Counted from the first letter of the stretch, positions 38,648-55,277 are shown. The stretch is 64,000 nucleotides of DNA from Chromatiaceae bacterium (GCA_020851955.1 JADZBU010000292.1:1704-65703); one strand, 5' to 3'. The notes: a model not told the origin generated them from the letters alone. A program made the numbers and translations.

Positions 38648-39572
38648 GTGAAGGCAGTCTTTACAAATGGCATCTCAATGGTAGACCAGGGGTATCGATA
38701 TGCGCACCGCTTTACCCAGGGTTTCGTTGGCTGGCCAGAAGAGTGGCTGCAAGACGAACCTATCGACTACCCGCCTGGCGATGATTTCCTCGGCCTCAAT
38801 ATGCAGCCGCAAGTGGTGTCGGCACGGTGGGAGTTTTATCTGGCGTTACGCAGGCAGGGCGTGTATGTGCATCTCGAAGGCTGTGGCCGATGAACTCGCC
38901 GACTGGGCCAAGGAAAATGGCCCAGCACGTCAACGGCCCTTCAAAATCCATTTGTTACATCTTGGCGCCGATGGCGACAACCTGACGCCAACCAGAGCAC
39001 TCCCGCCAGATGCGGACATCGTGTTTGATTGCTTACGCGCCCGCCCCACCTTTCTGATGGTCGGCATGCTCGAACCCTGCAAAGGCCATGGGCAAGTGCT
39101 CGATGCCTTTGAGCAACTCTGGAGGACCAGCAGTGACCTCAACCTCGTCATCATTGGCAAACAAGGCTGGATGGTTGAGGCCCTCCTCGACCGTCTCCGC
39201 GCGCACCCCGAACTGAATCAACGCCTGCTCTGGCTTGAAGGCATCAGCGACGAATACCTGGAAAAAGTCTACACTGCCAGCACCTGCCTGATCGCCGGCT
39301 CCTACGGCGAAGGCTTCGGCTTGCCTCTCATTGTTGCCGCCCAGCATAAGCTGCCGATCATTGCACGGGATATTCGCGCGTTCCGCGAAGTGGCCGGTGA
39401 GTATGCATATTATTTTGATGGCCCAACTCCTGACGTGTTGGTTGATGCAATTAATGCATGGCTTGTGTTGCATAGAAGTGGCCGGCATCCAATGTCAGAT
39501 AATATACCGTGGTTAACGTGGAAAGAGAGACCTTTGCGACTTGCGCAGGTTTTACAAGACGATCGTTTGTAA
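38648..39572 (+). pseudogene. Decayed copy of the third GT4 module of the polymerase gene
   Basis: Homology to residues about 900-1253 of the 33250..37011 product is split over two frames (38648..38893 and 38700..39572). About 35 codons are missing at the junction and there is no N-terminal half. Confidence 0.65.
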
Positions 39573-39588: not shown

Positions 39589-40794
39589 ATGCAAAAAAAC
39601 AATATCATACTCTTTGCCATCTTGCTCATATCACCTGTTTGGTTTTTTTTAATATGGTCAGTAATGGATTTCTCAGATTTTCGGTGGGATGCTGCATGGT
39701 ATCGGCAAATTAGTGCGGTAGGATATTCATTTAATGGCAATATATTGGAGCAAAACAATGTCGCCTTTTTACCAGGCTATCCCGTTTTGGTGTATGTTTT
39801 GTCAATATTTTTACCAATTGATCTCGCGTACATGCAGTTTATTGCTTCTGTGTTGTTATATTTTATAGGCGCATTCTGCCTGGCAAATTATGTTGGCAAT
39901 AGAATTGGCCTGCTCGAGGGATATGTCTTTATATTTATTCTATCGTTCACGCCTTATGCAATTTATTTTTTTAATGGCTACTCTGAAGCCGCTTATTTTG
40001 CGGTTATTGGTTTGTTTTTCTGTTTATCTGGTCGTGGGCATTATAGGATGGCTGCGCTAGTGGTGTCTTATGGCCTAATCACTAGGCCGCATGCACTTAT
40101 ACTTGTACCAATTTTGTATTATTTCGTGCTGTCGGGTGAGACTGGTTCGTTGGGTGATGAGCGAAGATTAAAATTAGTTGCCAGTATCAGATCGATTATA
40201 AATGTCACTCCTTTTGTTTGTGTTTTTCCCGCCGTGCTAACAGTCTACTATTATTTATTTTTTGAGGATACACTGTTATACAAAAATGCGATCACGGCAT
40301 GGGAAGTTCATGCGACTGGACTTTCTCAGAGTGAAACTTTGTGGCTTTCAATAGACTCGTTTCGCCATCTGACCACCGGGACTATTGAGGTCGCTGGAGT
40401 TATGCTAAAATATTTCGAACCCACGAAGTTCTCTGGTCTGGTTTTTTTATTAAATATTTTGGCAATAATTTTTATGGCTAGGTATTTGATAAAAAGAAAT
40501 TTATTATCAATATTTCTCTATCTTGTGTTTGCTGCGTTGTTTGGATTCATAACTGCGTCAATTGAAAATTTCGGGCGCCACAATTTGTTTCTCATGGCGC
40601 TACCGTTGTTCATGTCGGTTATTCTTGCGATGGGGGGAAGGCAAATTTTTCTGGATGACGGTAAGGTGGTCGGTGGGGCTGAAAAGGCTGGGAAAATAAT
40701 TATTGGTGCATTTGCTCTGTTATTTTTCGTGGTTCTATTTTACCATTTTACCATTTATGCTGCCTTGCAATTGAAAGATCAATGGGTATCATGA
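39589..40794 (+). CDS. Polytopic membrane protein, GT-C-like (PIG-V/mannosyltransferase-like) candidate
   Basis: 401 aa with about 10 hydrophobic segments. The first-loop motif DAAWYRQISAVGY...VAFLPGYPVLV resembles bacterial GT-C/PIG-V-like glycosyltransferases. Very AT-rich. Confidence 0.5.
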   Translation: MQKNNIILFAILLISPVWFFLIWSVMDFSDFRWDAAWYRQISAVGYSFNGNILEQNNVAFLPGYPVLVYVLSIFLPIDLAYMQFIASVLLYFIGAFCLANYVGNRIGLLEGYVFIFILSFTPYAIYFFNGYSEAAYFAVIGLFFCLSGRGHYRMAALVVSYGLITRPHALILVPILYYFVLSGETGSLGDERRLKLVASIRSIINVTPFVCVFPAVLTVYYYLFFEDTLLYKNAITAWEVHATGLSQSETLWLSIDSFRHLTTGTIEVAGVMLKYFEPTKFSGLVFLLNILAIIFMARYLIKRNLLSIFLYLVFAALFGFITASIENFGRHNLFLMALPLFMSVILAMGGRQIFLDDGKVVGGAEKAGKIIIGAFALLFFVVLFYHFTIYAALQLKDQWVS

Positions 40795-41366
40795 GCCAAC
40801 TTACATATATTATTTCATTGCTAACAGTTGCAGCATGGCTGACGTTTGTTTATGTCGGCGCAAAATCAAAAAATGATTATCTTTCTGTAGCTCTCTCTCC
40901 GCTGGCTATTGGTGTTGTGGCTGACTGGAAGAATGAGGAGAACTATCTTTACTTTAAAGGGTTTTCAGGTCCTGAACCCACGCATAGATGGTCTAATATA
41001 TCATATTTAAATATGTGTTACTTGCTACCCACTGATTCCATGGATTCTTGGGTTTTCTCTGTTAAAATGGATATACGGGTTGTTTCCGACTTGGTTGGCG
41101 AGAATATTATGGTGCGAGCTAATCGGGGGGAATGGATTTCAAATGTTTGTAAGTCGCAGGGCTGCGAATTAAATATTTCAGTTGCACCGCCCAGTAATTC
41201 GCAAATTATATGTTTGGAACTCCAATTACCTAAAACAGTCCGTGTAGAGGGTGACCCAAGAGCGCTAGGTATTCAGTTCTTTAGTTTAGAATACGAGATT
41301 CAAAAACCACCAGCGAAAGCTGGTGGGTTGAAATTACGGACTGAAAGTCCGGATAGGGGTCGATAG
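40791..41366 (+). CDS. Hypothetical protein with an N-terminal TM anchor
   Basis: AT-rich ORF coupled by ATGA to the preceding gene. No recognisable motif. Its last ~20 codons run through two GAAA-loop hairpins. Confidence 0.4.
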   Translation: MSQLTYIISLLTVAAWLTFVYVGAKSKNDYLSVALSPLAIGVVADWKNEENYLYFKGFSGPEPTHRWSNISYLNMCYLLPTDSMDSWVFSVKMDIRVVSDLVGENIMVRANRGEWISNVCKSQGCELNISVAPPSNSQIICLELQLPKTVRVEGDPRALGIQFFSLEYEIQKPPAKAGGLKLRTESPDRGR

Positions 41367-41689: not shown

Positions 41690-42332
41690 ATGATTCACCA
41701 GATCAAAGCATTGTACGACGAGGGGCGGGGCAGTTCGCTGCACGCCATCGCGGCGCAATTGGGCATCTCACGCAACACGGTACGCAAGTATCTGGCGATG
41801 AGTGCGGAGGCGATCACCGCCGACCAAGGGCAGCGGGCGCGCACCAATCGCCTGGACGGGCACCGGGACTAAATCGTCCATCTGCTGGCGACCTACCCGC
41901 GCCTGATGGCGGTGAAGGTGCTGCGCGAGCTGCAGGAGGCGCATGGCGAACTGGGGGTATCGGCTCGCAGCGCCCGGCGCTATATCAGCGCGCTGAAGGA
42001 GACGGTCAGCGTCAAACAAGTGCGTTACTACGAGCCGGTGCTGGACCTGGCACCGGGGGTCCAGTGCCAGGTCGACGGCGGGGAGTTGCGTGGGGTGATG
42101 ATCGGCGGGCGGGAGACGACCGTGTACTTCGTGGTCTTCGTGCTGTCGTACTCCCGACTGATGCAGGTGGTGGCGAGCCCCCGGGCGGTCGACACCGCCG
42201 TCCTGATCCGCATGCACGATGCGGCCTTCCGCGCCTTTGGCGGGTACCCCAAGGAGTACGTCTACGACCAGACCAGCCTGGTGGTGATCGCCGAGACCTT
42301 CCGTGAACTGACGCTCAACCAGCGCTTCCACC
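41690..42332 (+). pseudogene. IS21-family transposase istA, with an in-frame stop and a 3' truncation
   Basis: N-terminal HTH MIHQIKALYDEGRGSSLHAIAAQLGISRNTVRKYL, an in-frame TAA at 41870, then ...YPRLMAVKVLRELQE...VQCQVDGGE...YSRLMQV. Homology stops near residue 215 of an expected ~400 or more. Confidence 0.75.
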
Positions 42333-42337
42333 GGGGC

Positions 42338-42508
42338 CACCCGATCCTTTGGCGGACGCCCGACGCACCCACGGCTCGACGGGATGAAGCGATTGATCCC
42401 CAGCGATGGACTCAACGCCAGGTGATCCTCCTCCCGCAGAAAGGGAAACAGTTCGTGCTGGAGGTGGTTCCAGAATTGCGACAGGCGGGACTTACAGGTA
42501 GTATCCAT
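42338..42508 (-). mobile_element. N-terminal fragment of a DDE (IS4/IS5-superfamily-like) transposase
   Basis: MDTTCKSRLSQFWNHLQHELFPFLREE...GRPPKDR resembles N-termini of IS4/IS5-type transposases. It abuts the truncated istA. The family assignment is tentative. Confidence 0.4.
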
Positions 42509-42968
42509 CTTGGGTATCGGAATGAATCGTTGCTAACCATTTCATTTTACCAGCCCTTGGCCGGCCATACCCGCTCTTCCCCCCTTTTCTCTCCCCCTGC
42601 GGGGGAAAATCCCTCTACCCTCAGGATGCGAAACGGGACATCCCAGTCCCCCTTCCGCCTTGCGTTCGGCGACAACCCTTAGGCCCCGGCCGCCCCGCTC
42701 CGGGTCACGGCTCCGTCACGACAAGTCCCCTACGGGAATGGTCGGACTAGGCCATGACCCTACGACGAATGGCTTGACGGCATGTCGCACGCACCGCCTC
42801 CGCGGCTCCAGGACCTGCGGCCCCTGCGCCCCTCCGGCGGCACGCTCGCCCTGACGCCTTCCGGGGGACTACCGGCCTGCGCTTCGCTCACCATGGCCGT
42901 CAGTGAGTGTGTGTAGGAATCAGCTTGACTGGGCACGGCAGGCAGAACACAGCATGGAGACGAGACCA

Positions 42969-44102
42969 TCAGCGCTCCAGTAATGCCGTCACTGTCATTA
43001 TGACCCGCTCCTGCTCCGCCTCCAGCCCCAGCCACAACGGCAACCGTACAAGTCGGTCAGCCAGATCAGTGGTCACGGGCAGGCTGCCCTTGACCCGACC
43101 AGCCGCCCGCCCCCGGGGTGAGCTATGCAAGGGCACATAGTGAAAGACGCAGTTGATCCCCGCCTGGTTCATTTGGTTGATGAAGGCGGTGCGATCATCC
43201 AGATCGCGCAGCAACAGGTAATAAAGATGGGCATTATGGCCACAGTCGTCCGGCACCACCGGCCGGCGCACGCGCCCCGCCCGTTCCAGCGACTCGAAAG
43301 CCTCGTGGTAACGCTGCCAGATCGCCAACCTTCCTGCTGTGATGGCATCGGCCTCCTCCATCTGCGCCCAGAGGAAGGCGGCAATGATCTCGCCCGGTAG
43401 GTAGGACGAGCCGATGTCCACCCAGGTATATTTATCTACCTGGCCGCGGAAGAACTGGCTACGATTAGTGCCCTTCTCGCGGATGATCTCGGCGCGATCG
43501 GCTAGGGCCGGATCGTTGATCAGCAGCGCCCCGCCCTCGCCAGAGATAATGTTCTTGGTCTCGTGGAAGCTGTAGGCGCCCAGATGTCCGATGGCGCCGA
43601 GCGGGCGGTCGCGATAACGCGCCAGCACCCCCTGCGCTGCGTCCTCGATGACCAGCAGCCCGTGCCGCTCGGCGATGCCCATGATGGCGTCCATGTCACA
43701 GCCCACGCCGGCATAATGCACCGGAGTGATGGCGCGCGTGCGCGGCGTGATGGCGGCCTCAATCTTGCGCTCATCCAGATTCAGCGTGTCCGGGCGGATG
43801 TCGACGAACACCGGCACAGCGCCGCGCAGCGCGAAGGCATTGGCGGTGGAGACGAAGGTGTAGGACGGCATGATCACCTCGTCGCCCGGTTGCAGGTCGG
43901 CGAGGATGGCGGCCATCTCCAGCGCGGCGGTGCATGAGTGGGTGAGGAGGGCCTTGCGTGTGCCGGTGCGTTGTTCAAGCCAACGATTACAACTGCGAGT
44001 GAATTGCCCGTCACCAGCAAGCTGCCCGTGTCCATGAGCTGCCGCCACATTGTGCAACTCTTTGCCGGTCAGATAGGGTTTATTGAACGGAATCAGACTC
44101 AT
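42969..44102 (-). CDS. WecE/DegT-family PLP-dependent sugar aminotransferase
   Basis: 377 aa collinear with E. coli WecE: FNKPYLTGKEL, GDGQFTRSCNRWLEQ, PSYTFVSTANAF, SFHETKN (lysine site) and EKGTNRSQFFRGQVDKYTW. Confidence 0.85.
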   Translation of the reverse strand: MSLIPFNKPYLTGKELHNVAAAHGHGQLAGDGQFTRSCNRWLEQRTGTRKALLTHSCTAALEMAAILADLQPGDEVIMPSYTFVSTANAFALRGAVPVFVDIRPDTLNLDERKIEAAITPRTRAITPVHYAGVGCDMDAIMGIAERHGLLVIEDAAQGVLARYRDRPLGAIGHLGAYSFHETKNIISGEGGALLINDPALADRAEIIREKGTNRSQFFRGQVDKYTWVDIGSSYLPGEIIAAFLWAQMEEADAITAGRLAIWQRYHEAFESLERAGRVRRPVVPDDCGHNAHLYYLLLRDLDDRTAFINQMNQAGINCVFHYVPLHSSPRGRAAGRVKGSLPVTTDLADRLVRLPLWLGLEAEQERVIMTVTALLER

Positions 44103-44557
44103 GACGATGCTGCAGCTAGGTTGGCCTTTCTGAACACAAAAAGCTTCATCGCAACGAAGAAGAAAGCAGCCACCATGAATATTGCCAGAATCTGAACCAA
44201 TTGGTGCGGATAACCCATCTGCTGATACAAAATCTCAAGCAAGGATGCATTAATTAAGTAACCGGCAACATAGACCAAAATGTAGCGGACCAGAACCGTG
44301 CCCTCCAGACCCTGTGACTTGTGCCTAAACGTGTGGCGACGATGCGCAAAGTAGCCTGCCAGCACACTTAATGGGTAAAAAATAGTCACCGTCATCAGTG
44401 GGCTGACACCAAAGGAAGTGACCAATAAATAGACCATATAACCCAAGGAATTGAGTGTGAGCCCGACGATGGCATAGCGAATCAGCTCTTTCACCGGCAA
44501 GTTGGCGAGCAGTTGAATTCCCTCTTTCATCTGCCGTTGAAATGCCGTAACTGTCAT
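44099..44557 (-). CDS. GtrA-like small membrane protein (polyprenyl-phosphate-sugar flippase family)
   Basis: 152 aa with four TM segments and the RYAIVGL...N motif at the N-terminus, typical of the GtrA family. ATGA-coupled on both sides. Confidence 0.7.
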   Translation of the reverse strand: MTVTAFQRQMKEGIQLLANLPVKELIRYAIVGLTLNSLGYMVYLLVTSFGVSPLMTVTIFYPLSVLAGYFAHRRHTFRHKSQGLEGTVLVRYILVYVAGYLINASLLEILYQQMGYPHQLVQILAIFMVAAFFFVAMKLFVFRKANLAAASS

Positions 44558-45753
44558 TGGACCCTCGCAGCGAGCAAGGTCTGAAGCCGTCCCGCTTGTG
44601 CGACCATTTGCTCGCGGTCCGCATGCTCGACAAAAACGATACCGAATTTGTGAGTAGTTGCATCCGCAACGCGATCGCCTTCGTTCGCCCAGATCAGACG
44701 ATCAACGACCCTTTTTTCAATGTTAGGATCAAAATCAAAGCCAGCAAAGGTGCCCTCCCCATCGGCCATCAGGCAATGCCTGGTCATACAGCGACGCACT
44801 GGCATAAACCTGACCTCCGAAATGCTCCTACCACTGCTAGCGGCCATGATCCATTCGGCGTAGGGAGCACCCGTCGCATGCCGAACGAACTCAATGTAGA
44901 GATCTCCAGGTGCCCGCCGACAAATCTCGATGATCACAGGATCCCCGGCTTCCGGCTCGATGAACTGGACATGAAAAATGCCATCCACCAATTGGAGCGC
45001 TTCAGCAATCGCCTCGCTGTACTCAATTAGCCGATCAAGCGATTCTGGTCGACAGCTGCTCGGCGTCGACGCGGCAGACACCAGGTATGGAGAAAGGTGG
45101 TAGTCTTCGTCATCAGCGAAATGAAAAACCACGCGGCCACCGCGCAGTATGGCACTGAAACCATGGCGGCTTCCCGTGATAAATTCCTCGACAACGATTC
45201 GCTTTGCTTTCGAGATGGAAAACGCCTCCTGCGCCGCCAACATGGCGTCCTGGCGGTGATCAACCCGTGCAATCCCTTTCCCTCCGGTCAGGTCCACGGG
45301 TTTGATGATGAGCGGAAAACAGAAGTGCTGCGTCGCATCCTCAACCGACTCCAGATTCCCACAACCCAACGCGCGAGGACTCGGGATGCCAAGCTTCTGC
45401 GCAAAGTCCCGATAGCGATCCTTGTGATGGATAAGCTGTGCAACCTCGGTCGAGTCATGTCCCGGCAATCCCAACTGCTCCGCAACGTAAGCAGCCGTCA
45501 GCGCAGAGAAGTCGTTACAAGCGGCGCAGATGGCGTCGATACGTAGTTCTCGGGCGAGCGACAACATCGCATCGACATCGGAGAAATCCGCAAGTCGCAC
45601 TTCGTCGGCATACCGATGGCCAAGGTCCTCCGCCCGATTCCCGCTGGTAATTACATAATAGCCAAGCCTACGCGCTGCCTGGATCAAAGGGATATCGGAG
45701 TGTCCCCCGCCGGCTACCAGCAACCGTGGCTTACTCGTAGGCACGGTGATCAC
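44554..45753 (-). CDS. ATP-grasp family ligase
   Basis: 399 aa with the pre-ATP-grasp Rossmann LLVAGGGHSDIPLI, KDRYRDFAQKLGIPSP, the PLIIKPVDLTGGKGI glycine-rich loop and the EICRRAPGD Mg/ATP site. Confidence 0.75.
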   Translation of the reverse strand: MITVPTSKPRLLVAGGGHSDIPLIQAARRLGYYVITSGNRAEDLGHRYADEVRLADFSDVDAMLSLARELRIDAICAACNDFSALTAAYVAEQLGLPGHDSTEVAQLIHHKDRYRDFAQKLGIPSPRALGCGNLESVEDATQHFCFPLIIKPVDLTGGKGIARVDHRQDAMLAAQEAFSISKAKRIVVEEFITGSRHGFSAILRGGRVVFHFADDEDYHLSPYLVSAASTPSSCRPESLDRLIEYSEAIAEALQLVDGIFHVQFIEPEAGDPVIIEICRRAPGDLYIEFVRHATGAPYAEWIMAASSGRSISEVRFMPVRRCMTRHCLMADGEGTFAGFDFDPNIEKRVVDRLIWANEGDRVADATTHKFGIVFVEHADREQMVAQAGRLQTLLAARVQ

Positions 45754-46841
45754 GATGACGGAACGAAAAACATCACAGTCTCGGTGACGCCTTCCGTATA
45801 GTGACGCAAGTACAGGTCATAATCGTCCCGATATGACAACACGAGATCAGGAATGATACGAAGATCATCAGCTTTATGATAAACACTCAACGCAAGCCGG
45901 GGATGATACTTCGAGATCGTTTCTGATGCACCTTGCAGAGCTGAGACCTCTCCGCCTTCGATATCCATCTTCAAGAACGTGTAAGGCTCATCAATAACAT
46001 CATCGACACGTTCGACATTGATCACCAGTTCCCCGGAATGACTGATGCGTGACGCCGAGCCACCTGTCTCGAACCTCATGGTCGCAGCACGATTTGAAGC
46101 CCCATACGGATGATAACGAACATCCCGATGTCCGCTCAAACGTGCTCGCACTTTCACCATGTTCGAAGGTTCCGGCTCAAACGCATGGACTGACCGGTAA
46201 TCAGGGCAGCGCCGGATAAACTCGGCACTGGTATAGCCGTCAAAGCAGCCGACATCCACAAAGGTCTCGCCCGCCGTCTGTAGCTGAAGGAACGGCTCAA
46301 AATATTGCCGATCCTGCGCGTCTACAAACCCATCCATGTAAAGGATGTCCCGAGAAAGTCGGAAGTTGATCAGGCGCCGCAGAATGCGACGCGACTCATC
46401 GTCTTTCAGACGACACGCCAACCATTGATAATTATCTTGATGTGATTCGAATTCTTGTTCGAAGTCTCCCAGAAACAGGACCTCGCGCAGATTCAGCCCC
46501 GAGTATTTTTGAAAGGCAAAGTAATCAAGTCCTAAAACCCCTCGGTCAGCGATACATTGCTGTGCTGTCAGCGGGCGCTCACCAACAATAGCAGAAACCA
46601 CCTTTGCGCAGTTAGGCAGATCTTTGCTTCGGATGATCGGCTTACCGCAGAATTCTTCGTCAGCGGTGAAATCATCAACGAACCCATCCAGATCAACATG
46701 CTGCGCAATGCTTTCCGCCCAAGCATTACATCCGAACGCGTAGCGATTCCCGGACTCGTGCAAGAAGGCAGCACAAAAGCTGATCGCCTGCTCGTTATCC
46801 TCGAAAGCGTCAACCAAAAGCGCCCTTGAGCCTGTTGTCAT
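45750..46841 (-). CDS. FkbM-family methyltransferase with an N-terminal extra domain
   Basis: FVDVGCFDGYTS (SAM motif) and FLKMDIEGGEVSAL (FkbM signature). The start is taken at the ATG overlapping the upstream stop. Confidence 0.75.
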   Translation of the reverse strand: MTTGSRALLVDAFEDNEQAISFCAAFLHESGNRYAFGCNAWAESIAQHVDLDGFVDDFTADEEFCGKPIIRSKDLPNCAKVVSAIVGERPLTAQQCIADRGVLGLDYFAFQKYSGLNLREVLFLGDFEQEFESHQDNYQWLACRLKDDESRRILRRLINFRLSRDILYMDGFVDAQDRQYFEPFLQLQTAGETFVDVGCFDGYTSAEFIRRCPDYRSVHAFEPEPSNMVKVRARLSGHRDVRYHPYGASNRAATMRFETGGSASRISHSGELVINVERVDDVIDEPYTFLKMDIEGGEVSALQGASETISKYHPRLALSVYHKADDLRIIPDLVLSYRDDYDLYLRHYTEGVTETVMFFVPSS

Positions 46842-47983
46842 AATGAATCTCCCAAATCTGGAGCGATCCACTGGCGCTCGCGCGCCGATCGACCAATCGC
46901 TTCAAGCAGGATAAGCCCTTCCCGAGCATGCCTTGCAGAAAACACATAATCGGAGAATTGGCAACCATCGGATTTACCTCCACCTAAGGTTTTGGCAATG
47001 TCTCCGTACAGATTCGCAAAAGCCTCTAGAAACCCTGCTGGATGTCCCGACTTGAACCTATTATAACGGTCCAACTGCGCGAGTTGAACGTCACTGCTTG
47101 CTCGATCGATCCGCATCTGGTGTCCCCGATTGTCGGAGAACTGAAGCACTTCGGGATCCATTTGAACCCATTCCGCTGACGCCTCCTCGCCAAAGACCCT
47201 CACGCGCAGGCCGTTCCGGTAACCGAGTGCTGCCTTGCTGAACCAGAAACTGCTTTCCAAGTCGTTGGTATAGCGAACGAGGGCCATTGTATTGTCAACA
47301 ACCTGCCGAAAACGGCCGAGGCTACTCTGTGTGGCCACCAGCTCACGGGGCTTCTCTCCTGTAAGAAAGTCGACCAGATGATGAAGATGAACCCCAAGGT
47401 CCAGCGAAATAGTCGGTACGACGCCATCCTGCAGACGCCACTGCTGGGGGATTACAGGCTGACCGTCGCGGTTGAGGCGCGCAAAACCCTCCTGGGGCAT
47501 TTCAAGATGGACTTGTTCCACCCGGCCAAGTCGACCCGATTGGATCATCTCCCGCAGCTCACGAACCATCGGATAACCCGTATAATTGTAAGTTACCGTC
47601 AAGAACCCCTTGGTTTCATTGACCGTTTGCTCGATCTCCTCGGCTTCAGACGCAGTCGTCGCGAGTGCCTTTTCACAGATCACAGGGTAGCCGGCTTGTA
47701 ACGCACCAATCACTGGATCGCGGTGCATTGGTGTCGGAGTCAAAACGACAATTCCGTCGAGCCGGTCTTGCTCACGTTCCAGCATCTCCTCCCATCGCGC
47801 ATAGCACCGGTCTCCAGCAATACCCCATTGAGCCGCTGTTTGCTCGTTCACGTCTGCATGCCGACTGAAACAGCCTGCGTCGACACGAAACAGGCCGTCC
47901 ATTTGTGCAGCAATGAAATGTGTTGTCCCGACGGCTGAGTTGACTCCGCCACCGATGAATCCCAGTCGAAGTGGCTTATTCAT
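46838..47983 (-). CDS. Gfo/Idh/MocA-family NAD(P)-dependent oxidoreductase
   Basis: N-terminal LRLGFIGGGVNSAVGTTH Rossmann motif and the ICEKAL catalytic-lysine box. 381 aa. Confidence 0.8.
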   Translation of the reverse strand: MNKPLRLGFIGGGVNSAVGTTHFIAAQMDGLFRVDAGCFSRHADVNEQTAAQWGIAGDRCYARWEEMLEREQDRLDGIVVLTPTPMHRDPVIGALQAGYPVICEKALATTASEAEEIEQTVNETKGFLTVTYNYTGYPMVRELREMIQSGRLGRVEQVHLEMPQEGFARLNRDGQPVIPQQWRLQDGVVPTISLDLGVHLHHLVDFLTGEKPRELVATQSSLGRFRQVVDNTMALVRYTNDLESSFWFSKAALGYRNGLRVRVFGEEASAEWVQMDPEVLQFSDNRGHQMRIDRASSDVQLAQLDRYNRFKSGHPAGFLEAFANLYGDIAKTLGGGKSDGCQFSDYVFSARHAREGLILLEAIGRSARERQWIAPDLGDSL

Positions 47984-48923
47984 CTTCTTGCCTATATTCG
48001 AAAGTTAAAGAATCGATGATATACAGTGGTCGGTTTTTGACCTCATCGAAGATCTTACCGACGTACAAGCCGACAATGCCGATGGTACCAATAATCAACC
48101 CGGCAGTGAAATAGACGGAGACAATGAGGCTTGTCCAGCCAATAATCGGCGTCGCCCACAAAAAATAGCGTAACGCGATCCAAGCTGCATAGAAGAGGGA
48201 GAGCACCGAAACGGTCAGCCCTAATTTGACGGTGAGCAGAAGAAGTTTGTCCGAATGCGCGACAATGCTATCAAGCGCCAGCTTGGCCATCTTACGAAGC
48301 GTGTAGCTGGAGCGACCATGCGACCGCTCGGCATGATTGACGTCGATCTCAGCACGACGAAATCCAACCCAGATGGCAATTAGTCCAAAAGATCTATTCT
48401 GCTCCTTTAAGCGACGGATGCTACGGATCACCTTTTGCGCGTAGATCCCAAAGTTACCGATACGGTTGTCAACCTTAGTCCCGCTGAAATACGCGAACAC
48501 GCGATAGAAGAGCTTGGACAGTCCTTTCTTAGCCCAATGGTCCTTTCGCTCTGCACGGCGGCCAACCACGATGTCGTAACCCGATCGCGCTTTCTCATAA
48601 AGCTTGGGTATCTCTTCTGGCCTATCTTGGAGGTCGCAGTCCATCACGACCACCCAGTCGCCATGGGCAAAATCCAATCCTGCCGTGATTGCGTAGTGTT
48701 GTCCAAAATTACGTGAGAGGTTGATTCCCTTGACCCGTCCGTCTACCGCTGCAAGCTGATGAATAACTGACCAACTGTCATCCGGGCTGGCGTCATTGAT
48801 CAGAATGATCTCGTAGTCCGACGTAAGGCTCGACAGGACGGTTTGCAGGCGCTCGCAAAGCTCTGGCAGCGCTTGGCCACAACCATAAACCGGTGAGACG
48901 ACGGAAAGATGTGAACGGCTCAT
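47976..48923 (-). CDS. GT2 polyprenyl-phosphate glycosyltransferase (ArnC/GtrB/DPM1-like) with two C-terminal TM helices
   Basis: LSVVSPVYGC...EIILINDASPDDS...VVVMDCDLQDRPEEIP (DxD) plus a C-terminal hydrophobic hairpin, the ArnC/GtrB architecture. The start is taken at MSRSHLSV. Confidence 0.8.
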   Translation of the reverse strand: MSRSHLSVVSPVYGCGQALPELCERLQTVLSSLTSDYEIILINDASPDDSWSVIHQLAAVDGRVKGINLSRNFGQHYAITAGLDFAHGDWVVVMDCDLQDRPEEIPKLYEKARSGYDIVVGRRAERKDHWAKKGLSKLFYRVFAYFSGTKVDNRIGNFGIYAQKVIRSIRRLKEQNRSFGLIAIWVGFRRAEIDVNHAERSHGRSSYTLRKMAKLALDSIVAHSDKLLLLTVKLGLTVSVLSLFYAAWIALRYFLWATPIIGWTSLIVSVYFTAGLIIGTIGIVGLYVGKIFDEVKNRPLYIIDSLTFEYRQEDE

Positions 48924-48925
48924 GC

Positions 48926-49801
48926 TTACACTTTGGAAGTTATCTGCTTGCGAAATACTCCGAGCACCGAAGTACCCCAAGGAAAGCGCAGCAAGTGCCC
49001 CAAGGGCGTCTCGGCCGCGAAAATCGCGGTCAAGGGTAAATTGAGTAGCGCGGATGGCACCTGGTGGGTCTTGTGCATCAGCCCCATTTTCTGTGCTTCG
49101 GTCATGCCCTCGATCCCTTTCCCCTGCCGCGCCAGCCAGTAGAGCGGGCTGAGCAGGAACATGAAGTAGCGTGCGTCGCAGAGGTGCAGGCCAGCCTGCT
49201 CGCCGAGGCGCACGAAGTCGGCGCGGGTGTAGCGGCGCAGGTGGAGCGCTAAATCATCGTTGTAGCTCCAGAACTGCTGGAAGGCCGGGGTGGTGACGAA
49301 CAGCAGTCCGCCGGGCTTGAGCGCGGCGCGCGCCTGGCGCAGGGCCTCCAGGTCATTGGGCAGGTGCTCAATCACATCCAGCAGGAAGGCGACATCCCAG
49401 TGATCGCGCCAGCCCAGATTCATCAGGTCGATCTGATAGCGCTCGACGCCCGCGTGCAGCACGCCACCGGCCATGCGCAGCGCCGTGCGCGAGGAGTCGG
49501 CCAGGGCCAGTGGCTGGTGCTGCCCGGGTCGCCGGTCGGCAAGATAGCGCACCCATCCACCTACCCCCCCCCCGAGGTCCACGGTCGCCAGGAGTCCGCT
49601 GCCACGCGGGCGATAGCGGTCGAGGGCATGGAGCAGGAACCGGTGCCGTCCTCGATACCAGAAGTGCCGCTCCTGTATGGCCCAGAGGGTGGCGAAGCCG
49701 TCTTCGGGATATTCGTCATCGCGGTGTTGGATTGGGGAGGCGGGCTCGTTGATGCCGTCGCTGGCCAGGGTGTAGGCGCTGTTCACTGTACGGTTCCTCA
49801 A
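48926..49801 (-). CDS. Class I SAM-dependent methyltransferase
   Basis: Motif I VDLGGGVGGW, LLDVIEHL and KPGGLLFVTTP. The HFWYRGR N-terminal box is present. It contains a G10 tract in motif I. Confidence 0.75.
   Translation of the reverse strand: MRNRTVNSAYTLASDGINEPASPIQHRDDEYPEDGFATLWAIQERHFWYRGRHRFLLHALDRYRPRGSGLLATVDLGGGVGGWVRYLADRRPGQHQPLALADSSRTALRMAGGVLHAGVERYQIDLMNLGWRDHWDVAFLLDVIEHLPNDLEALRQARAALKPGGLLFVTTPAFQQFWSYNDDLALHLRRYTRADFVRLGEQAGLHLCDARYFMFLLSPLYWLARQGKGIEGMTEAQKMGLMHKTHQVPSALLNLPLTAIFAAETPLGHLLRFPWGTSVLGVFRKQITSKV
49564..49573 (-). repeat. G10 homopolymer on the coding strand (C10 on plus) inside SAM-binding motif I
   Basis: The plus strand reads tac ccccccccc c gag. On the coding strand, ctc ggg ggg ggg gta encodes LGGGV. 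Confidence 0.9.
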
Positions 49802-50139
49802 TCTGTCACGCGGCTTGCACTGAGATCACTTTCTGCCAATTTTGGGCGCAAGCCAGAACGATCTTGTGCGCGCTTGCGCAACTCCAACTTGGCTGCATGA
49901 TGGGTTTTTTCAGTCAGCTCACTGAGCCATACGCAAGCGGCTTTCTCAAGAGCAATCCTTGCGCGAACTTCGTCTTCGAGACGTGTCAGCTTGCCCTCCA
50001 GGCGTGCGCGCAGCTTGGCATCGCGTTGCATGAGGTAGGCAAAAACCCAGCCACCTGTAGCGACCAGCAATGTCGTCAGATGACCTAGAAGCGTTGTCAG
50101 CATAGTTTCCGTCATGATTGCGGTAGGCGCGTTTGGCAC
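49798..50139 (-). CDS. Small hypothetical protein (one TM plus a helical tail), possibly a relic ORF
   Basis: 113 aa, ATGA-coupled to the methyltransferase gene. No motif found. It lies next to a methyltransferase gene remnant, so it may not be a genuine gene. Confidence 0.3.
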   Translation of the reverse strand: MPNAPTAIMTETMLTTLLGHLTTLLVATGGWVFAYLMQRDAKLRARLEGKLTRLEDEVRARIALEKAACVWLSELTEKTHHAAKLELRKRAQDRSGLRPKLAESDLSASRVTD

Positions 50140-50189: not shown

Positions 50190-50275
50190 ATCTGCCGCCC
50201 GCGCAGTCTGTAGTAATGCTTCGGCGCCAGATCATCGTTGTCGCACCAGAACTGCTGGAAGGCCGGTGTGGCTCT
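50190..50275 (-). pseudogene. Remnant of a second copy of the class I methyltransferase
   Basis: 50226..50271 aligns with 49248..49293. The translation TPAFQQFWCDNDDLAPKHYYRL matches TTPAFQQFWSYNDDLALHLRRY in the intact gene. There is no upstream ORF. Confidence 0.5.
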
Positions 50276-50296: not shown

Positions 50297-50638
50297 TCAG
50301 GTACCACAGGCACGAATTTCCTCTAACTCATCTGCCACGGAATTCTCTGCAATGTCCAGGTCGTACCCTGATTGCAGATTCATCCAAAACTGCGGCGTGG
50401 TGCTGAAGAACCGCCCCAAGCGCAGCGCGGTATCCGCCGTAATGGCGCGCCTGCCCTTCAGGATGTCGCTGACCCACGTCTGGGGCATGTGGGTTGCCTG
50501 AGCCAGTCGGGAAGCGGGGACGCCAGCGCCGTCCAGGTAATCCTGCAGGACATCGCCCGGGGTAACGGCAGGCAGCCCTTCCCCGGTAGCAATGTCAGAA
50601 AAATCCATCGTTTTCAGTTCTTCAATACGAATACCCAT
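50297..50638 (-). CDS. higA: HigA-family (XRE HTH) antitoxin
   Basis: 113 aa with PGDVLQDYL...ASRLAQATHMPQTWVSDILKGRRAITADTALRLGRFFSTTPQFWMNLQ, the HigA/VapI signature. Confidence 0.8.
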   Translation of the reverse strand: MGIRIEELKTMDFSDIATGEGLPAVTPGDVLQDYLDGAGVPASRLAQATHMPQTWVSDILKGRRAITADTALRLGRFFSTTPQFWMNLQSGYDLDIAENSVADELEEIRACGT

Positions 50639-50647
50639 GATGACACC

Positions 50648-50845
50648 TCAATGGTAATCTACCATTTCAACATCAAATGCGTCACCGTCAACCCAGCGGA
50701 AACAAATGCGCCACTGCCGGTTGACCCTAAAACTCCACAGGCCTTGACGGTCGCCGCCCAACTTTTCCAGCCTGTTTGATGGCGGTAGCCGTAGATCGTC
50801 AACCTGCACGGCGTTCCAAACGGATAATAAAATTAGCAAAATCAA
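50648..50845 (-). pseudogene. higB: HigB/RelE-type toxin lacking its N-terminal third
   Basis: The C-terminal PPSNRLEKLGGDRQGLWSFRVNRQWRICFRWVDGDAFDVEMVDYH is classic HigB. Only about 65 codons remain from a TTG, with a stop just upstream and AT-rich foreign-looking sequence replacing the 5' end. Confidence 0.6.
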
Positions 50846-51069
50846 TAAGTTAATAAATGGCTTTGCGAAGCTTCACGGGAAGAGCGCACCTTACTGGGTA
50901 GCCCCTGGTTTGTAAAGGGCCAGATCTTAAAATAGACATGAAAGACATTGTTCTCTGTAACTATATGTTTTTAATACAGAAAAATGTATTTTGTTTATTT
51001 CTGAGCAATAGAGGGCGTCCATGCCTTCGTAGTATAAAATCAACGCCAGCCCTGCACTTGGAAGTACAC

Positions 51070-52257
51070 ATGTCTATGGCAATCCTGGACAATGTCATTT
51101 ATCGCCCCATCCTTGCCGCGCTGGTTGGTGCCCTAGTCCTCTGGTTGGGAGTCTGGTGGTACCAGCAACTCGGCTCCGACACGACAGCCCCGGCCCTGGT
51201 GATGACCGATGAGCAGCTCAAGCTGGTCGCCGGCGAGGGGGGAAAAATGGAAGATGGTATCCTGATCCGGCGCCGGCCGCCAGGAAAGCCCGCCATGGTA
51301 ATGGCCGCAACCCTCCCATTTGAGGCTGGGCAATTTGCCCGCTTCTCCTGGGATATCAGAGGCCTTGAGCCCCAACAGAACCTAGCCCTGATCTGGGTTA
51401 CAAACACCGATCCCAACAAGCCCCGCACGCGCAAGATCACCCCGGAGGAGCGGGCCGTGGGTTTCCTGCAACTGGAGGATGATCCCACCTGGCGGGGGCA
51501 AATCCTAAAATTTGGGCTCCTGGTGACAGGCAATCTGCCGGAGCCGGTACTGGTGAAGGGTTTGACGCTTGAGGGCGAGCCCCCTACCCCACTGACCGCC
51601 CTCCGGTCGCTGGCAGGGGACTGGACTCACCAAGAGCCCTGGACCGGGCGCTCGATCAACTTCCATGTCGGGGCCGCCACGAAAGACCGGCTGCTGACGC
51701 CGGTCCTTCTCGTCGGGCTCTGGGTGGGGCTGGGTAGCCTGCTGTTGGTATTCTTCGACCGCCTCTCCTCCAGCCGCCATCTCCTGGGGGGACTGGCCCT
51801 CCTTTTTCTGGGGGGGTGGCTGCTGCTGGATCTCCGCTGGCAGTGGCTGCTAGCGACCCGGCTTGAGGAGACCTATGAGCGCTATGGCCACCTGACGCCG
51901 GACCAGCGACCCAGCGCCCGGCCGGACGCCCATGTTGTCACAGCCCTTGACCAATTGCGCAAGGCCCTGCCCGAGGAACCATCGCGAATTTTCCTGCTGA
52001 GCAAGAATCCCAGCGATTACCTGACCCTGCGGGTTCGTTATCATCTGCTACCTCTTCGGGTCTTCGCCTCCGATCACCTGCCCAATCCCGAGCAGATCCA
52101 GGCCGGGGACCATTTCCTGGTCCTTGCGAATCCCGAGGTGGTCCGGTTTGATGGGACGCATAAGCGCCTGGTTGACGGGGAGGCATCCCTACCCGTGGAG
52201 CCCCTTAGCAAGGTGCAGGGGTTTGGCGGCTTATATCGCATACCGGGAGGGGGCTGA
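51070..52257 (+). CDS. Hypothetical membrane protein: N-terminal TM, a ~200 aa extracytoplasmic domain, then further TMs
   Basis: The start is taken at MSMAILDN. No catalytic motif was recognised. It ends one base before the next membrane protein gene starts. Confidence 0.45.
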   Translation: MSMAILDNVIYRPILAALVGALVLWLGVWWYQQLGSDTTAPALVMTDEQLKLVAGEGGKMEDGILIRRRPPGKPAMVMAATLPFEAGQFARFSWDIRGLEPQQNLALIWVTNTDPNKPRTRKITPEERAVGFLQLEDDPTWRGQILKFGLLVTGNLPEPVLVKGLTLEGEPPTPLTALRSLAGDWTHQEPWTGRSINFHVGAATKDRLLTPVLLVGLWVGLGSLLLVFFDRLSSSRHLLGGLALLFLGGWLLLDLRWQWLLATRLEETYERYGHLTPDQRPSARPDAHVVTALDQLRKALPEEPSRIFLLSKNPSDYLTLRVRYHLLPLRVFASDHLPNPEQIQAGDHFLVLANPEVVRFDGTHKRLVDGEASLPVEPLSKVQGFGGLYRIPGGG

Positions 52258-52258
52258 G

Positions 52259-53704
52259 ATGGATGGGTGGTGGTTGGCGTTAGCGCTGCTCTTACCGGGG
52301 ATAACGATGGCGCTGTGGCTGCGCCTCTTATGGCCAGAAGCGGTTCCAGGGCGTTGGCCGTTGGTCCTGGGGTATGGGTACTTGTTAGGGATGCTGGGGG
52401 TCGCGGCGCTGTTGTGGTTCCAGGGGGTGCTAGGCTGGCCCTTGGGGAGCGGCATACCCTTGACGGTGTCTGGATTGCTGCTGGTGGCGGCGGTGTTTCT
52501 GCTGGTTCAGCGACCCTCTGCCGCTAGCCCGGCGTGGCAGGGAGCACGGGAGCGACTGAACTTCTGGCAAGGCCCGGCCTGCGGCCTGATCCTCTTGTGG
52601 GTGGTCGCGCGCTGGGTGGGCCTGGCCTTGGAGGTCTGGTGGCAACCCCTGTTTCCCTGGGACGCCTGGACCACTTGGGGCGCGCGGGCCAAGGTGTGGT
52701 CGGAACTCCAGGCGCTGGTCCCCTTCGTCTCCCCGGAGGCCTGGCTGGCGGACAGGACCGGGACGCTACACACTATCGGTGCCTGGGGCTATCCCGTGAC
52801 CATTTCCCTGGTGGCGACCTGGCCAACTTTAGTTCTAGGGACCTGGAACGAGACCGCGGCCAATCTGCCCTGGCTGGGGGTGGGCCTGGCCCTGGGGCTG
52901 GGATTTTATGGTCAGGCGCGGCTGTGGGGGGCTTCGCCGCTGACGGCCCTGGTCTTTGTGTGGCTGGTGATGTCGGTGCCGCTGTTGAATACCCATGTCG
53001 CCCTGGCGGGCTATGCGGATTTATGGATGGCGACCGCCTATGGGCTGGCCCTGATGGCGTTTTTACAGTGGGTGCGTAGCGGCGACCAACGCCAGGGGTG
53101 GCTGGCCATCTTGCTGATGCTGATTTGCGTGGCCATCAAGCGGGAGGGGCTGGTCTGGGCAGCCCTCTTCATCCCGGCCCTGCTGGCCGCCAAGCTGGGA
53201 AGGTTTTCGCTGCTGATGGTGGGCGGGGTGCTGCTGGCCTTGGGGGGGCTGCTCTGGGTGCTGGGGGGGCTTGCCCTCGAGGTGCCGGGCCTGGGCGCCA
53301 TCCGGTTGTCGGCGGATCTTATCCAACTGCCCCTGATCGGGGAGATGAGGCTGGAGAATCATGCCCCCTGGGAGCCGGTACTGCGGCAGTACTTCCTATA
53401 CAGCAACTGGCACTTGTTTGCCTATCTGGTGGTCCTGTCCCTGGTGGCGGCCAGTGCCAGCCTCTGGCGCGCCCCCGATCAGGCCTGGCAAAGGGCCGGT
53501 CTGGTTTGGGCCCTGGGCAGTATCGCGGCCCTCTATTTTCTGTTCTTTTGGACCGATGCCTACCTTTGGGCCATCCAGGCCACCAGCATCAACCGCCTCC
53601 TGCTGCACTTCATGCCCGCCTTCCTGTTCTGGAGCATGACGGTATGGCTAGAGGTGGCGGGCTATCGCCAGGAGTCCCCAAGACTCGTTCATAAAGCTGG
53701 TTGA
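52259..53704 (+). CDS. Polytopic (about 12 TM) membrane protein, GT-C glycosyltransferase or O-antigen-ligase-like candidate
   Basis: 481 aa, very hydrophobic, with an aromatic/acidic first loop (PLFPWDAWTTW). The context is a set of polyprenyl-phosphate GT2 genes. The assignment is by architecture only. Confidence 0.45.
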   Translation: MDGWWLALALLLPGITMALWLRLLWPEAVPGRWPLVLGYGYLLGMLGVAALLWFQGVLGWPLGSGIPLTVSGLLLVAAVFLLVQRPSAASPAWQGARERLNFWQGPACGLILLWVVARWVGLALEVWWQPLFPWDAWTTWGARAKVWSELQALVPFVSPEAWLADRTGTLHTIGAWGYPVTISLVATWPTLVLGTWNETAANLPWLGVGLALGLGFYGQARLWGASPLTALVFVWLVMSVPLLNTHVALAGYADLWMATAYGLALMAFLQWVRSGDQRQGWLAILLMLICVAIKREGLVWAALFIPALLAAKLGRFSLLMVGGVLLALGGLLWVLGGLALEVPGLGAIRLSADLIQLPLIGEMRLENHAPWEPVLRQYFLYSNWHLFAYLVVLSLVAASASLWRAPDQAWQRAGLVWALGSIAALYFLFFWTDAYLWAIQATSINRLLLHFMPAFLFWSMTVWLEVAGYRQESPRLVHKAG

Positions 53705-54833: not shown

Positions 54834-54869
54834 GGGAAATTCAGGGATGGACCGACGGGCTGAGTTGGG

Positions 54870-55277
54870 TCACTCCCGTGGGTCCTGACCCTTCCGAGGG
54901 TCTGGTTGGTCAGGGAGATCGCCGGCCTCCGGGGCCGAGGCACTTATTGACTCAATCCGGGCCTCCAGCAAGGCCAACCGCTGCGCCAAACGCCGGAGGC
55001 CCTGCTCCTGTCGGGATCGCTCCAGGTCCATGCTCATCATCTTAACCAGGACCAGGGCAAAACCCAGGATGACGGCCACGATGGGGGGGTAGCTGACGCC
55101 CAGATAAGGGGCGATGAGGTCGGTCAGCCGGGGCCAGGTGCCGAGGAGGATGATGGCGGCGGCGAGGCCCAGCCACCAGAGGGCATGGGGGCCGTGGAGA
55201 TGAGCGCGGCGTACCAACAGCATGATGGCGGCGGCCAGCACCAGGCCGATGGCCAGGGATGTCAACTGATAGGTCAT
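54870..55277 (-). CDS. DUF2304-like small membrane protein with a C-terminal coiled coil
   Basis: 135 aa from MTYQLTS, with three or four TM segments then LERSRQEQGLRRLAQRLALLEARI. ATGA-coupled to the upstream GT2, an arrangement recalled for DUF2304 genes. Confidence 0.5.
   Translation of the reverse strand: MTYQLTSLAIGLVLAAAIMLLVRRAHLHGPHALWWLGLAAAIILLGTWPRLTDLIAPYLGVSYPPIVAVILGFALVLVKMMSMDLERSRQEQGLRRLAQRLALLEARIESISASAPEAGDLPDQPDPRKGQDPRE

Follow-up and report, generated by a model that had tools for sequence, protein, structure and literature searches.

Und-P-linked decoration of envelope glycans in the periplasm (Und-P, undecaprenyl phosphate), as carried out by the Gtr and Arn systems, governs serotype, phage receptors and resistance to peptides. 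The systems of this kind described to date move simple or lightly modified sugars; the operon considered here adds to such a delivery apparatus a core formed by a WecE-type aminotransferase, an ATP-grasp ligase and an oxidoreductase, which in related loci occurs with or without an FkbM-family methyltransferase. Branches of amino-6-deoxyhexoses on independently made polysaccharides are known from Xanthomonas campestris, where mutants in wxcK (aminotransferase) or wxcN (transfer) lose the Fuc3NAc branch on the rhamnan (PMC4878081). Type B flagellin of Clostridioides difficile carries a sulfonated peptidylamido sugar for which an ATP-grasp protein is genetically required, together with a redox-family enzyme; the locus in question (CDR20291_0244-0247) also encodes an FdtB-like dTDP-sugar aminotransferase (PMC5207246). 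Amide-linked derivatives of glycine, alanine, serine and threonine on O-antigen sugars are structurally well documented (PMC7685785), and for many of these O-antigens no genes assigned to the N-acylation step were found in the literature searched. The operon comprises eight head-to-tail open reading frames (ORFs) on the minus strand of a 64,000-nucleotide stretch, hereafter the window, which belongs to a contig of a Chromatiaceae metagenome-assembled genome and whose proteins are deposited as MCC7279335-369 (Table 1).

We suggest, with a probability of roughly 0.55 for the overall scheme, that the genes of this operon specify a pathway of the Gtr/Arn type by which an envelope glycan receives, as decoration, a tailored derivative of 4-amino-4,6-dideoxy-D-galactose (Fuc4N). 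An earlier note on this DNA had described eight coupled genes of an undescribed Arn/Gtr-like pathway at positions 42969-50139. The genes are real, and seven of the eight domain assignments were confirmed with strong scores in Pfam and NCBIfam. In the literature searched, we found no paper describing the gene set, and no described system that combines the delivery half with the sugar half or assigns a function to the triad of ATP-grasp ligase, Gfo/Idh/MocA oxidoreductase (Gfo) and FkbM methyltransferase. The three-component logic of the Gtr and Arn systems that the note had recognized is also supported, with a family 2 glycosyltransferase (GT2) matching GtrB and ArnC over its full length, a GtrA-family protein above the Pfam cut-off, and a protein of the GT-C fold encoded downstream of the operon.

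A comparison of gene neighbourhoods showed that the eight genes are not conserved as one set. A scan for the ATP-grasp gene with one genome per species yielded 157 loci, 80 of which were taken with 10-kb flanks; these derive from Gamma- and Betaproteobacteria, Desulfobacterota, Verrucomicrobiota, Planctomycetota, Fibrobacterota, Spirochaetota, Chloroflexota and Bacillota, and the core of the cassette is thus present in at least eight phyla. Partner genes were counted within 6 kb of the ATP-grasp gene in the 53 loci that have at least 6 kb on both sides, and tblastn searches with the window proteins agree with de novo clustering of all ORFs. A redox partner is present in 52 of these 53 loci (98%; Gfo in 49, a FabG-like short-chain dehydrogenase/reductase (SDR) in 3), a WecE-like aminotransferase in 47 (89%), and a GT2 with transmembrane (TM) segments in 45 (85%). 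Polytopic membrane proteins of at least 380 amino acids and at least six TM segments follow with 33/53, FkbM with 21/53 (40%), small flippase-like proteins with 15/53, and the class I methyltransferase with 8/53 (15%). GtrA was found in only two of the 80 loci, which are the nearest relatives of the window, and the small first ORF in none. What is conserved is a four-gene core of ATP-grasp ligase, oxidoreductase, WecE and membrane-anchored GT2, and the eight-gene set is one elaboration of this core plus a delivery kit.

Several observations extend the picture of the cassette beyond this core. The loci of Fibrobacter (e.g., L032, L041, L058) have an aminotransferase-ATP-grasp-Gfo core without FkbM, flanked by a 580-amino-acid polytopic protein, a membrane GT2, Wzm, and a 413-amino-acid membrane protein that we judge to be a candidate sulfatase/lipoteichoic acid (LTA)-synthase-like protein. 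Fused GT2/radical-SAM proteins of about 780-790 amino acids are encoded beside the ATP-grasp or oxidoreductase gene in two Planctomycetota and one gammaproteobacterium (L021, 7594-9957; L031, 12309-14660; L017, 12023-14371). Cultured carriers of the cassette include Azonexus hydrophilus DSM 23864, Pseudomaricurvus alkylphenolicus, Fibrobacter intestinalis, F. succinogenes and Thiomicrospira sp. ALE5. Distantly paralogous loci in Bacteroides finegoldii and on a Brachyspira plasmid repeat the theme of aminotransferase, ATP-grasp and oxidoreductase, and the former (L086) contains a DegT gene, two ATP-grasp genes, an oxidoreductase, a glycosyltransferase and a gene annotated as LTA-synthase family. 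A search of plasmids retrieved distant paralogues only, with 25-31% identity.

The aminotransferase encoded by the last gene of the operon is, judged by its sequence, a true WecE orthologue. It matches the DegT/WecE family of Pfam with 305 bits and passes the WecE equivalog models NF008687 (619 bits; cut-off 375) and TIGR02379 (619 bits; cut-off 435). Its alignment with E. coli WecE (4piw/4zah; E 5.9e-154) shows 61% identity over 369 columns and includes the PLP-lysine motif SFHETKN (PLP, pyridoxal phosphate); ArnB, perosamine synthetases and the C-3 aminotransferases WbpE and QdtB match with three- to fourfold lower scores. In loci from Thiohalophilus, Verrucomicrobiaceae, Albibeggiatoa, Pseudomaricurvus and Robertmurraya, RmlA and RmlB genes are interleaved with the cassette, and in Thiohalophilus the order is RmlB-RmlA-GT56-Gfo-FkbM-ATP-grasp-aminotransferase. 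WecE orthology and the position of RmlA/RmlB inside cassette operons together indicate that amination takes place on dTDP-4-keto-6-deoxy-D-glucose, which the enzyme would convert into dTDP-Fuc4N. GDP-4-keto-6-deoxymannose from the Gmd enzyme of the window was considered as a substrate as well, but this perosamine route was rejected because the protein scores 515 bits to WecE and 168 bits to perosamine synthetases.

The earlier note had envisioned a dehydratase-free origin of the amine, in which the Gfo protein turns a hydroxyl group on a UDP- or dTDP-linked hexose into a ketone that the aminotransferase then aminates, as in the GnnA/GnnB and WbpB/WbpE pairs. The pairing of Gfo-family sugar 3-dehydrogenases with DegT-family aminotransferases is well established, both partners co-occur with the ATP-grasp gene at the frequencies given above, and the note was right that the operon lacks a 4,6-dehydratase: none for dTDP-glucose is encoded in the entire window, the GDP-mannose type lying outside the operon. 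Against this route stand the orthology of the aminotransferase to WecE and the RmlA/RmlB genes embedded in related operons, which leave it unsupported, and the properties of the oxidoreductase itself. The latter matches three Pfam domains above their cut-offs, yet reaches only 51 bits with the UDP-GlcNAc 3-dehydrogenase model, for which the cut-off is 450. Its best PDB matches (3v5n, 1e-57; 3dty; 7d5m/n) are uncharacterised oxidoreductases, and its nearest relatives of known function, with much weaker E-values, are inositol- and L-glucose-dehydrogenases. No nucleotide-sugar dehydrogenase is close to it among the PDB matches, and the entries 3q2i and 3q2k, which we take to be WlbA, reach only about 25-27 bits. 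Furthermore, a FabG-like SDR replaces Gfo in some loci while the same aminotransferase is kept. We therefore regard amination without a dehydratase as quite unlikely. That the oxidoreductase is a near-obligate partner replaceable by an SDR suggests instead that a redox reaction takes place on the acid or the sugar as well.

With dTDP-Fuc4N as the predicted amino sugar, the ATP-grasp protein probably serves as its N-acylase, as the earlier note had proposed for an N-acylating or aminoacylating enzyme; structural comparison makes this plausible. The protein matches eight ATP-grasp families of Pfam, and its AlphaFold2 model (mean predicted local distance difference test score, pLDDT, 94) has the three-domain ATP-grasp fold. 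A Foldseek search with this model placed the uncharacterised 4dim first, followed by L-amino-acid ligases, biotin carboxylases and PurT. The closest structures of known function are the L-amino-acid ligases, with TM scores of 0.82-0.84 for 3vot/BL00235, 0.81 for BacD and 0.75 for RizA, and phmmer likewise matches 3vot (8.5e-13). More than 2000 homologues are found at E<=1e-10, the best 120 of which share at least 52% identity, and the GTG start at 45753 is backed by homologues of 399 amino acids with 100% coverage. The ATP-grasp gene is the anchor of the cassette neighbourhoods, in which no acetyltransferase family is conserved, and this absence fits an ATP-grasp enzyme standing in for WecD. 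The likeness to L-amino-acid ligases favours an amino acid as the acyl group.

The two methyltransferases are accessory to this core. The FkbM protein scores 70.7 bits with TIGR01444 (cut-off 37.7) and 49.1 bits with PF05050 (cut-off 22.7), and the family profile covers both domains of the uncharacterised protein 2py6 in the PDB (E 3.5e-53). The class I methyltransferase matches PF13489 with 53 bits; its homologues, at 26-30% identity, occur in 13 of the 80 loci, often beside the GT2 or a flippase-like gene. Six loci that represent several phyla (L014, L016, L020, L022, L023, L085; L022, 13247-14617; L085, 14972-17385) have a gene for a class II 3-deoxy-D-arabino-heptulosonate 7-phosphate (DAHP) synthase embedded between the FkbM and aminotransferase genes, and L085 also encodes a dehydroquinate synthase. 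The founding member of the FkbM family methylates a shikimate-derived cyclohexane ring. Because of the DAHP synthase in six operons, the inositol-dehydrogenase-like relatives of Gfo, and the substrate of the FkbM founder, one may speculate that the carboxylic acid which the triad couples to the 4-amino group of Fuc4N is carbocyclic (cyclitol-type), tailored, and derived from the shikimate pathway, an idea that we hold to be a long shot. If it were true, the carbocyclic acyl group would represent a class of substituent new to bacterial surface polysaccharides and would be delivered on Und-P across phyla.

The delivery half begins with the GT2, a predicted Und-P sugar transferase of the GtrB/ArnC type. 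It matches PF00535 with 104 bits; its residues 5-306 align with 27-329 of Synechocystis GtrB (5ekp; E 1.6e-59) and its residues 6-307 with ArnC (9hwj; E 5.8e-46). The alignment spans the motif DxDLQ(D/N)xPEEIP, in which DCDLQDRPEEIP of the GT2 lies opposite DADLQDPPE of GtrB and DADLQNPPEEIP of ArnC, the pair of C-terminal TM segments, and the juxtamembrane motif GxYxGxIxxEVKxRPLY. The C-terminal hairpin that the earlier note had seen, formed by hydrophobic segments at about residues 226-252 and 259-292, is therefore aligned end to end with the solved GtrB and ArnC structures. All 66 cassette-associated members of the GT2 family have two to three TM segments, and none are present in the ATP-grasp, Gfo, FkbM, class I methyltransferase or aminotransferase proteins of the operon.

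The GtrA protein has several hydrophobic segments and covers positions 1-117 of the 117-position profile PF04138 with 61.8 bits (cut-off 26.1). The slot after the ATP-grasp gene, which GtrA fills in the window and its two nearest relatives, is taken elsewhere by an EamA-type protein of 110-125 amino acids and four TM segments, resembling ArnE/ArnF and sometimes present as two copies in tandem, or by an eight-TM protein like the drug/metabolite transporters (DMT), as in Smithella.

In some organisms the product of the cassette appears to be used in the cytoplasm. A gene for a WecF-like GT56, i.e., a cytoplasmic transferase of the dTDP-Fuc4NAc type, sits with the cassette in three loci (L010, L031 and L081), the genera with such a neighbour being Thiohalophilus, Thiomicrospira and Pseudomaricurvus. 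Since L010 has no membrane GT2, these three loci imply that the tailored product is a dTDP-sugar. They could also be taken to mean that the sugar of the window serves solely as a cytoplasmic dTDP-donor for the assembly of O-units, the GT2 being an ordinary processive or O-unit enzyme and GtrA incidental. The window, however, contains no GT56, the match of its GT2 to GtrB and ArnC extends from end to end and takes in the TM hairpin, GtrA is translationally coupled within the operon, and a membrane-anchored GT2 accompanies the cassette in 45 of the 53 well-flanked loci; we consider a purely cytoplasmic use very unlikely.

For the periplasmic step of the Gtr/Arn-type pathway, the GT-C-fold protein encoded at 39589-40794 is the best candidate transferase for the lipid-linked sugar, because its gene is located close to the end of the wzm/wzt/GT4 operon and converges on the amino-sugar operon. 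It is followed in its operon only by an ORF for a 194-amino-acid single-TM protein, a possible accessory protein. The candidate itself has no direct Pfam match; a search of 5.8 billion proteins gave a single close homologue, and an exhaustive HMMER scan gave 708 remote relatives. When 41 of these were aligned with the candidate (42 sequences in total), 16 of the sequences matched PIG-V, 9 matched PMT_2 and 1 matched GT87. Asp34 in the motif WDAxWY is invariant in all 42 sequences, and we infer that this acidic residue of the first extracytoplasmic loop is catalytic. The AlphaFold2 model (pLDDT 93; predicted TM score, pTM, 0.93) retrieves with Foldseek GT-C or GT-C-related membrane proteins in all of its best 31 PDB matches (AglB, STT3, PglB, ArnT, Pmt4, ALG3/9), most at a probability of 1.00 and with TMq values of 0.40-0.60.

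The earlier note had pointed to GT-C candidates on both sides of the operon. Both proteins are indeed GT-C-like, the one on the far side by UniRef naming (RgtA/B/C/D-like); the latter, however, belongs to a separate, lineage-conserved module with the GC content of the host and most likely serves a second polyprenyl-phosphate system. This module encodes a 439-amino-acid membrane protein, the GT-C-like protein of 481 amino acids, a GT4, a DUF2304 protein (81 bits) and a PpgS-like GT2, and resembles the mycobacterial PpgS/Rv3632 pair. Its arrangement is repeated in a Competibacteraceae genome, and Thiocapsa keeps the two membrane proteins adjacent. Among the other cassette loci, polytopic proteins belong to many unrelated families, a diversity expected of acceptor-specific, GtrC-like transferases. 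Nine such neighbours have no Pfam family, and their GT-C status is consequently presumed from topology and position only.

The acceptor is suggested by the surroundings. Against a background of 64-69% GC, an island of lower GC content extends from about 23.9 to 52 kb and is an ABC-transporter-type O-antigen cluster, which also holds FkbM and further GT4 genes; since gmd and rmd are both present, the backbone is probably a D-rhamnan. The same chemistry could alternatively be aimed at lipid A or the core, as an Arn-like charge modification, possibly with a cationic aminoacyl-amino sugar, that would alter resistance to cationic peptides. The parts parallel those of Arn (a DegT-family aminotransferase, an ArnC-like GT2, ArnE/F-like EamA proteins in about 20 loci, and a polytopic transferase), and an enzyme of the L-amino-acid-ligase type could leave a free alpha-amine. 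Yet the cassette is also present in Bacillota (Lachnospiraceae, Robertmurraya), organisms devoid of lipid A, the operon lacks an ArnA-like formyltransferase and an ArnD-like deformylase and lies within an O-antigen island, and the polytopic proteins that accompany the cassette differ widely, as would be expected if acceptors vary. In our view, lipid A or core is an unlikely target.

The operon itself is real and intact: all eight ORFs are full-length relative to their homologues, their start/stop overlaps are kept, and a scan of the operon revealed no convincing internal promoter or terminator above the shuffle expectation. Five junctions were said to be 4-nucleotide ATGA overlaps. Overlaps of 4 nucleotides are indeed found at five, but only those between Gfo and FkbM, ATP-grasp and GtrA, and GtrA and aminotransferase read ATGA; that between FkbM and ATP-grasp is GTGA, and that between the small ORF and the class I methyltransferase is TTGA and requires a TTG start, a GTG start at 49786 leaving a gap of 11 nucleotides. 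The 8-nucleotide overlap is located at the GT2/Gfo junction, and the frames of the methyltransferase and the GT2, thought to abut, are separated by a 2-nucleotide spacer (TAA GC ATG).

The small first ORF is the weakest member of the operon. It exists, as the earlier note had stated, but its TM nature is unproven, its hydrophobic segment being weakly hydrophobic with a Kyte-Doolittle value of 1.35. Because it has no match in Pfam or NCBIfam, no homologue among the 80 related loci and this weak hydrophobicity, its membership in the pathway is doubtful. The possibility that it is the decayed 3' end of a methyltransferase gene was examined and dismissed: the match to the methyltransferase gene consists only of a 48-nucleotide fragment upstream of it, and the remainder of the region aligns with that gene no better (21.5) than shuffled sequence does (16.3 +/- 6.2).

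The intactness of the genes also bears on a reading of the operon as a horizontally acquired remnant in decay, from which no product is made any longer. The GC content varies from 47 to 64% among adjacent genes, a fragment of an IS21-family transposase lies downstream, a methyltransferase gene fragment of 48 nucleotides and a higBA pair lie upstream, and rmlAB are missing from the window. The full-length reading frames and preserved overlaps speak against decay, as does the nearest relative, which keeps the order FkbM-ATP-grasp-GtrA-aminotransferase at 75-86% identity; loss of function is the least probable of the readings weighed here.

Taken together, the Gtr/Arn-type pathway that we favour would proceed in six steps. 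RmlA and RmlB, encoded elsewhere in the genome, would provide dTDP-4-keto-6-deoxy-D-glucose, from which the WecE orthologue would form dTDP-Fuc4N. In place of WecD, the ATP-grasp enzyme would then acylate the 4-amino group at the expense of ATP, with either an amino acid or a hydroxy acid in free form. The Gfo protein, whose partnership with the ATP-grasp enzyme is evident, would make or modify the acyl group or a sugar hydroxyl, and the FkbM and class I enzymes would methylate. This tailoring would take place on the soluble dTDP-sugar, since relatives hand their product to the cytoplasmic WecF-like GT56. The GtrB/ArnC-like GT2 would load the finished sugar onto Und-P, with GtrA aiding its passage across the membrane. 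Finally, a GT-C enzyme, most likely the one encoded near the wzm/wzt/GT4 operon end, would transfer the sugar in the periplasm to the D-rhamnan O-antigen exported by the ABC transporter, where it would form a side branch.

A number of points weigh against this scheme and have entered the probability that we give it. The GT2 falls below the equivalog cut-offs for ArnC (NF007986, 184 versus 529 bits) and PgfS (NF047588, 210 versus 500 bits) and hence is a relative of these families with a specificity of its own; to our knowledge, there is no dTDP-dependent member of the GtrB/ArnC-type GT2 family. With neither rmlA nor rmlB (nor a GT56 gene) anywhere in the 64-kb window, precursor supply from elsewhere in the genome has to be assumed. 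The operon is compositionally mosaic and has a recombination scar upstream. The GT-C gene has a GC content of 38.6% versus the 47-64% of the operon, an IS21 fragment lies in between, and none of the 80 cassette loci encodes a relative of the protein (the membrane proteins at 39589, 50938 and 52259 gave no phmmer match at E<=10 to any of their ORFs); its pairing with the operon is thus circumstantial. The acceptor could be lipid A, the core or another glycan, and the acyl donor as well as the chemistry of the Gfo, FkbM and class I methyltransferase proteins are what we infer.

The island contains further features that are worth recording. Within the gene for the 664-amino-acid methyltransferase, directly 3' of wzm/wzt, a 42-nucleotide tandem repeat (7.9 copies, 97% match) encodes 14-amino-acid units, AEA(L/Q)AHDQEQRALA, of a repetitive coiled coil. 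The region looks like a chain-length ruler/terminator of the WbdD type for O-antigens, and a change in copy number could tune chain length. Two FkbM paralogues that are 57% identical bracket the O-antigen operon on opposite strands, each with a C-terminal extension of about 200 amino acids covered by no family. A 260-nucleotide direct repeat (80% identity) connects the 3' end of the three-module GT4 gene with a gene for a 290-amino-acid GT4 and suggests a module duplication. Between the aminotransferase and the low-GC GT-C genes, the truncated IS21-family transposase (83.5 bits in NCBIfam versus a cut-off of 160; partial rve domain) shows where the island has a mosaic joint. A higB/higA toxin-antitoxin pair (HigB-like toxin, 53.8 bits; helix-turn-helix (HTH) antitoxin) lies immediately upstream of the operon and separates it from genes with host GC content. 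The first copy of a 48-nucleotide direct repeat (90% identity) lies inside the class I methyltransferase gene; the second, just after the higA stop codon, encodes ATPAFQQFWCDNDDLA and is a stranded fragment of a methyltransferase gene. A comparison of the surroundings of both copies revealed no similarity in the flanking sequence, and the repeat probably stems from a recombination or insertion event that left a scar at the 5' end of the operon.

Table 1. Positions of the operon genes and of other features in the 64-kb window.
Feature	Coordinates	Strand	Remarks
WecE-type PLP aminotransferase	42969-44102	-	last operon gene; GC 62.7%, host-like
GtrA-family small membrane protein	44099-44557	-	putative flippase or flippase helper for lipid-linked sugar
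ATP-grasp carboxylate-amine ligase	44554-45753	-	L-amino-acid-ligase-like; proposed dTDP-Fuc4N N-acylase
Two-domain FkbM-family SAM (S-adenosylmethionine) methyltransferase	45750-46841	-	presumed O-methylation of sugar or acyl group
Gfo/Idh/MocA NAD(P) oxidoreductase	46838-47983	-	near-obligate ATP-grasp partner
GtrB/ArnC-type polyprenyl-phosphate glycosyltransferase (GT2)	47976-48923	-	two C-terminal TM segments
Class I SAM methyltransferase (Methyltransf_23 type)	48926-49801	-	accessory tailoring; GC 64.5%
Small ORF	49798-50139	-	105-aa hypothetical protein MCC7279355.1 at NCBI, start 50115
GT-C-fold membrane glycosyltransferase	39589-40794	+	near end of wzm/wzt/GT4 operon; GC 38.6%
194-aa single-TM protein	40782-41366	+	overlaps GT-C stop by 13 nt; GC 41%; weak DUF7024 match
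rmd	26682-27722		island gene
gmd	27736-28827		GDP-mannose 4,6-dehydratase
wzm	28875-29702
wzt	29699-30916		Wzt_C domain
664-aa methyltransferase	30904-32898		directly 3' of wzm/wzt
42-nt tandem repeat	31968-32297		wider extent 31884-32423
Three-module GT4	33250-37011
FkbM paralogue	23912-25117	-
FkbM paralogue	37021-38280	+
260-nt direct repeat	36643-36902; 39204-39463
IS21-family transposase, truncated	41906-42682
48-nt direct repeat	49246-49293; 50224-50271
higB/higA	50297-50845	-	toxin-antitoxin pair
Second polyprenyl-phosphate module	50938-56077
GT-C-like 481-aa protein	52259-53704		in the module 50938-56077

Solving the product would give a name to a widespread surface sugar and an enzyme for the ATP-dependent N-acylation of nucleotide amino sugars, and solving the pathway would test whether GtrB/ArnC-type enzymes accept bulky dTDP-donors. 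Among the described systems, Gtr of Shigella and Salmonella phages (GtrA/GtrB/GtrC) is similar in that a membrane-anchored GT2 loads Und-P, GtrA is present, and a GT-C enzyme transfers in the periplasm, the transferase being the variable part, as GtrC is. Gtr, however, handles plain glucose from UDP-Glc without tailoring enzymes, whereas five tailoring enzymes precede the GT2 step in the operon and a dTDP-sugar donor is expected. The Arn system for L-Ara4N on lipid A (PmrHFIJKLM) shares a DegT-family 4-aminotransferase, N-acylation before lipid transfer, an ArnC-type GT2, the small ArnE/F-like EamA proteins seen in many related loci, and a polytopic transferase. It differs in that neither ArnA (dehydrogenase/decarboxylase plus formyltransferase) nor the deformylase ArnD is found in the operon with Pfam and NCBIfam, that the acyl group would be supplied by an ATP-grasp ligase rather than from formyl-THF (tetrahydrofolate), that the sugar would be a 6-deoxyhexose made via dTDP, and that the acceptor is probably not lipid A.

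The Fuc4NAc branch of enterobacterial common antigen (RmlA/RmlB, WecE, WecD, WecF) relies on the same aminotransferase family and on dTDP-Fuc4N, and some cassette loci keep a WecF-like GT56; acetylation by WecD would be replaced here by an ATP-grasp ligase, an oxidoreductase and methyltransferases, and delivery in the window by Und-P and GT-C instead of WecF. The flagellin locus of C. difficile likewise encodes a dTDP-sugar aminotransferase, besides the ATP-grasp protein and redox-family enzyme needed for its amide-linked peptidyl amino sugar, but its aminotransferase is of the C-3, FdtB-like type, its target is a protein, flagellin, and it has no lipid-carrier GT2, GtrA or GT-C. Closest in biological arrangement is region 3 of the wxc cluster of X. 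campestris (wxcK-wxcO), in which an independently made rhamnan is decorated with a dTDP-derived amino-6-deoxyhexose and the island is laid out with gmd/rmd, wzm and wzt; its sugar is the 3-amino compound Fuc3NAc with an ordinary acetyl group, and it lacks the ATP-grasp, Gfo and FkbM triad. What is new in the Chromatiaceae operon is the joining of Gtr/Arn-type delivery to an uncharacterised, widely conserved core for the tailoring of an amino sugar.

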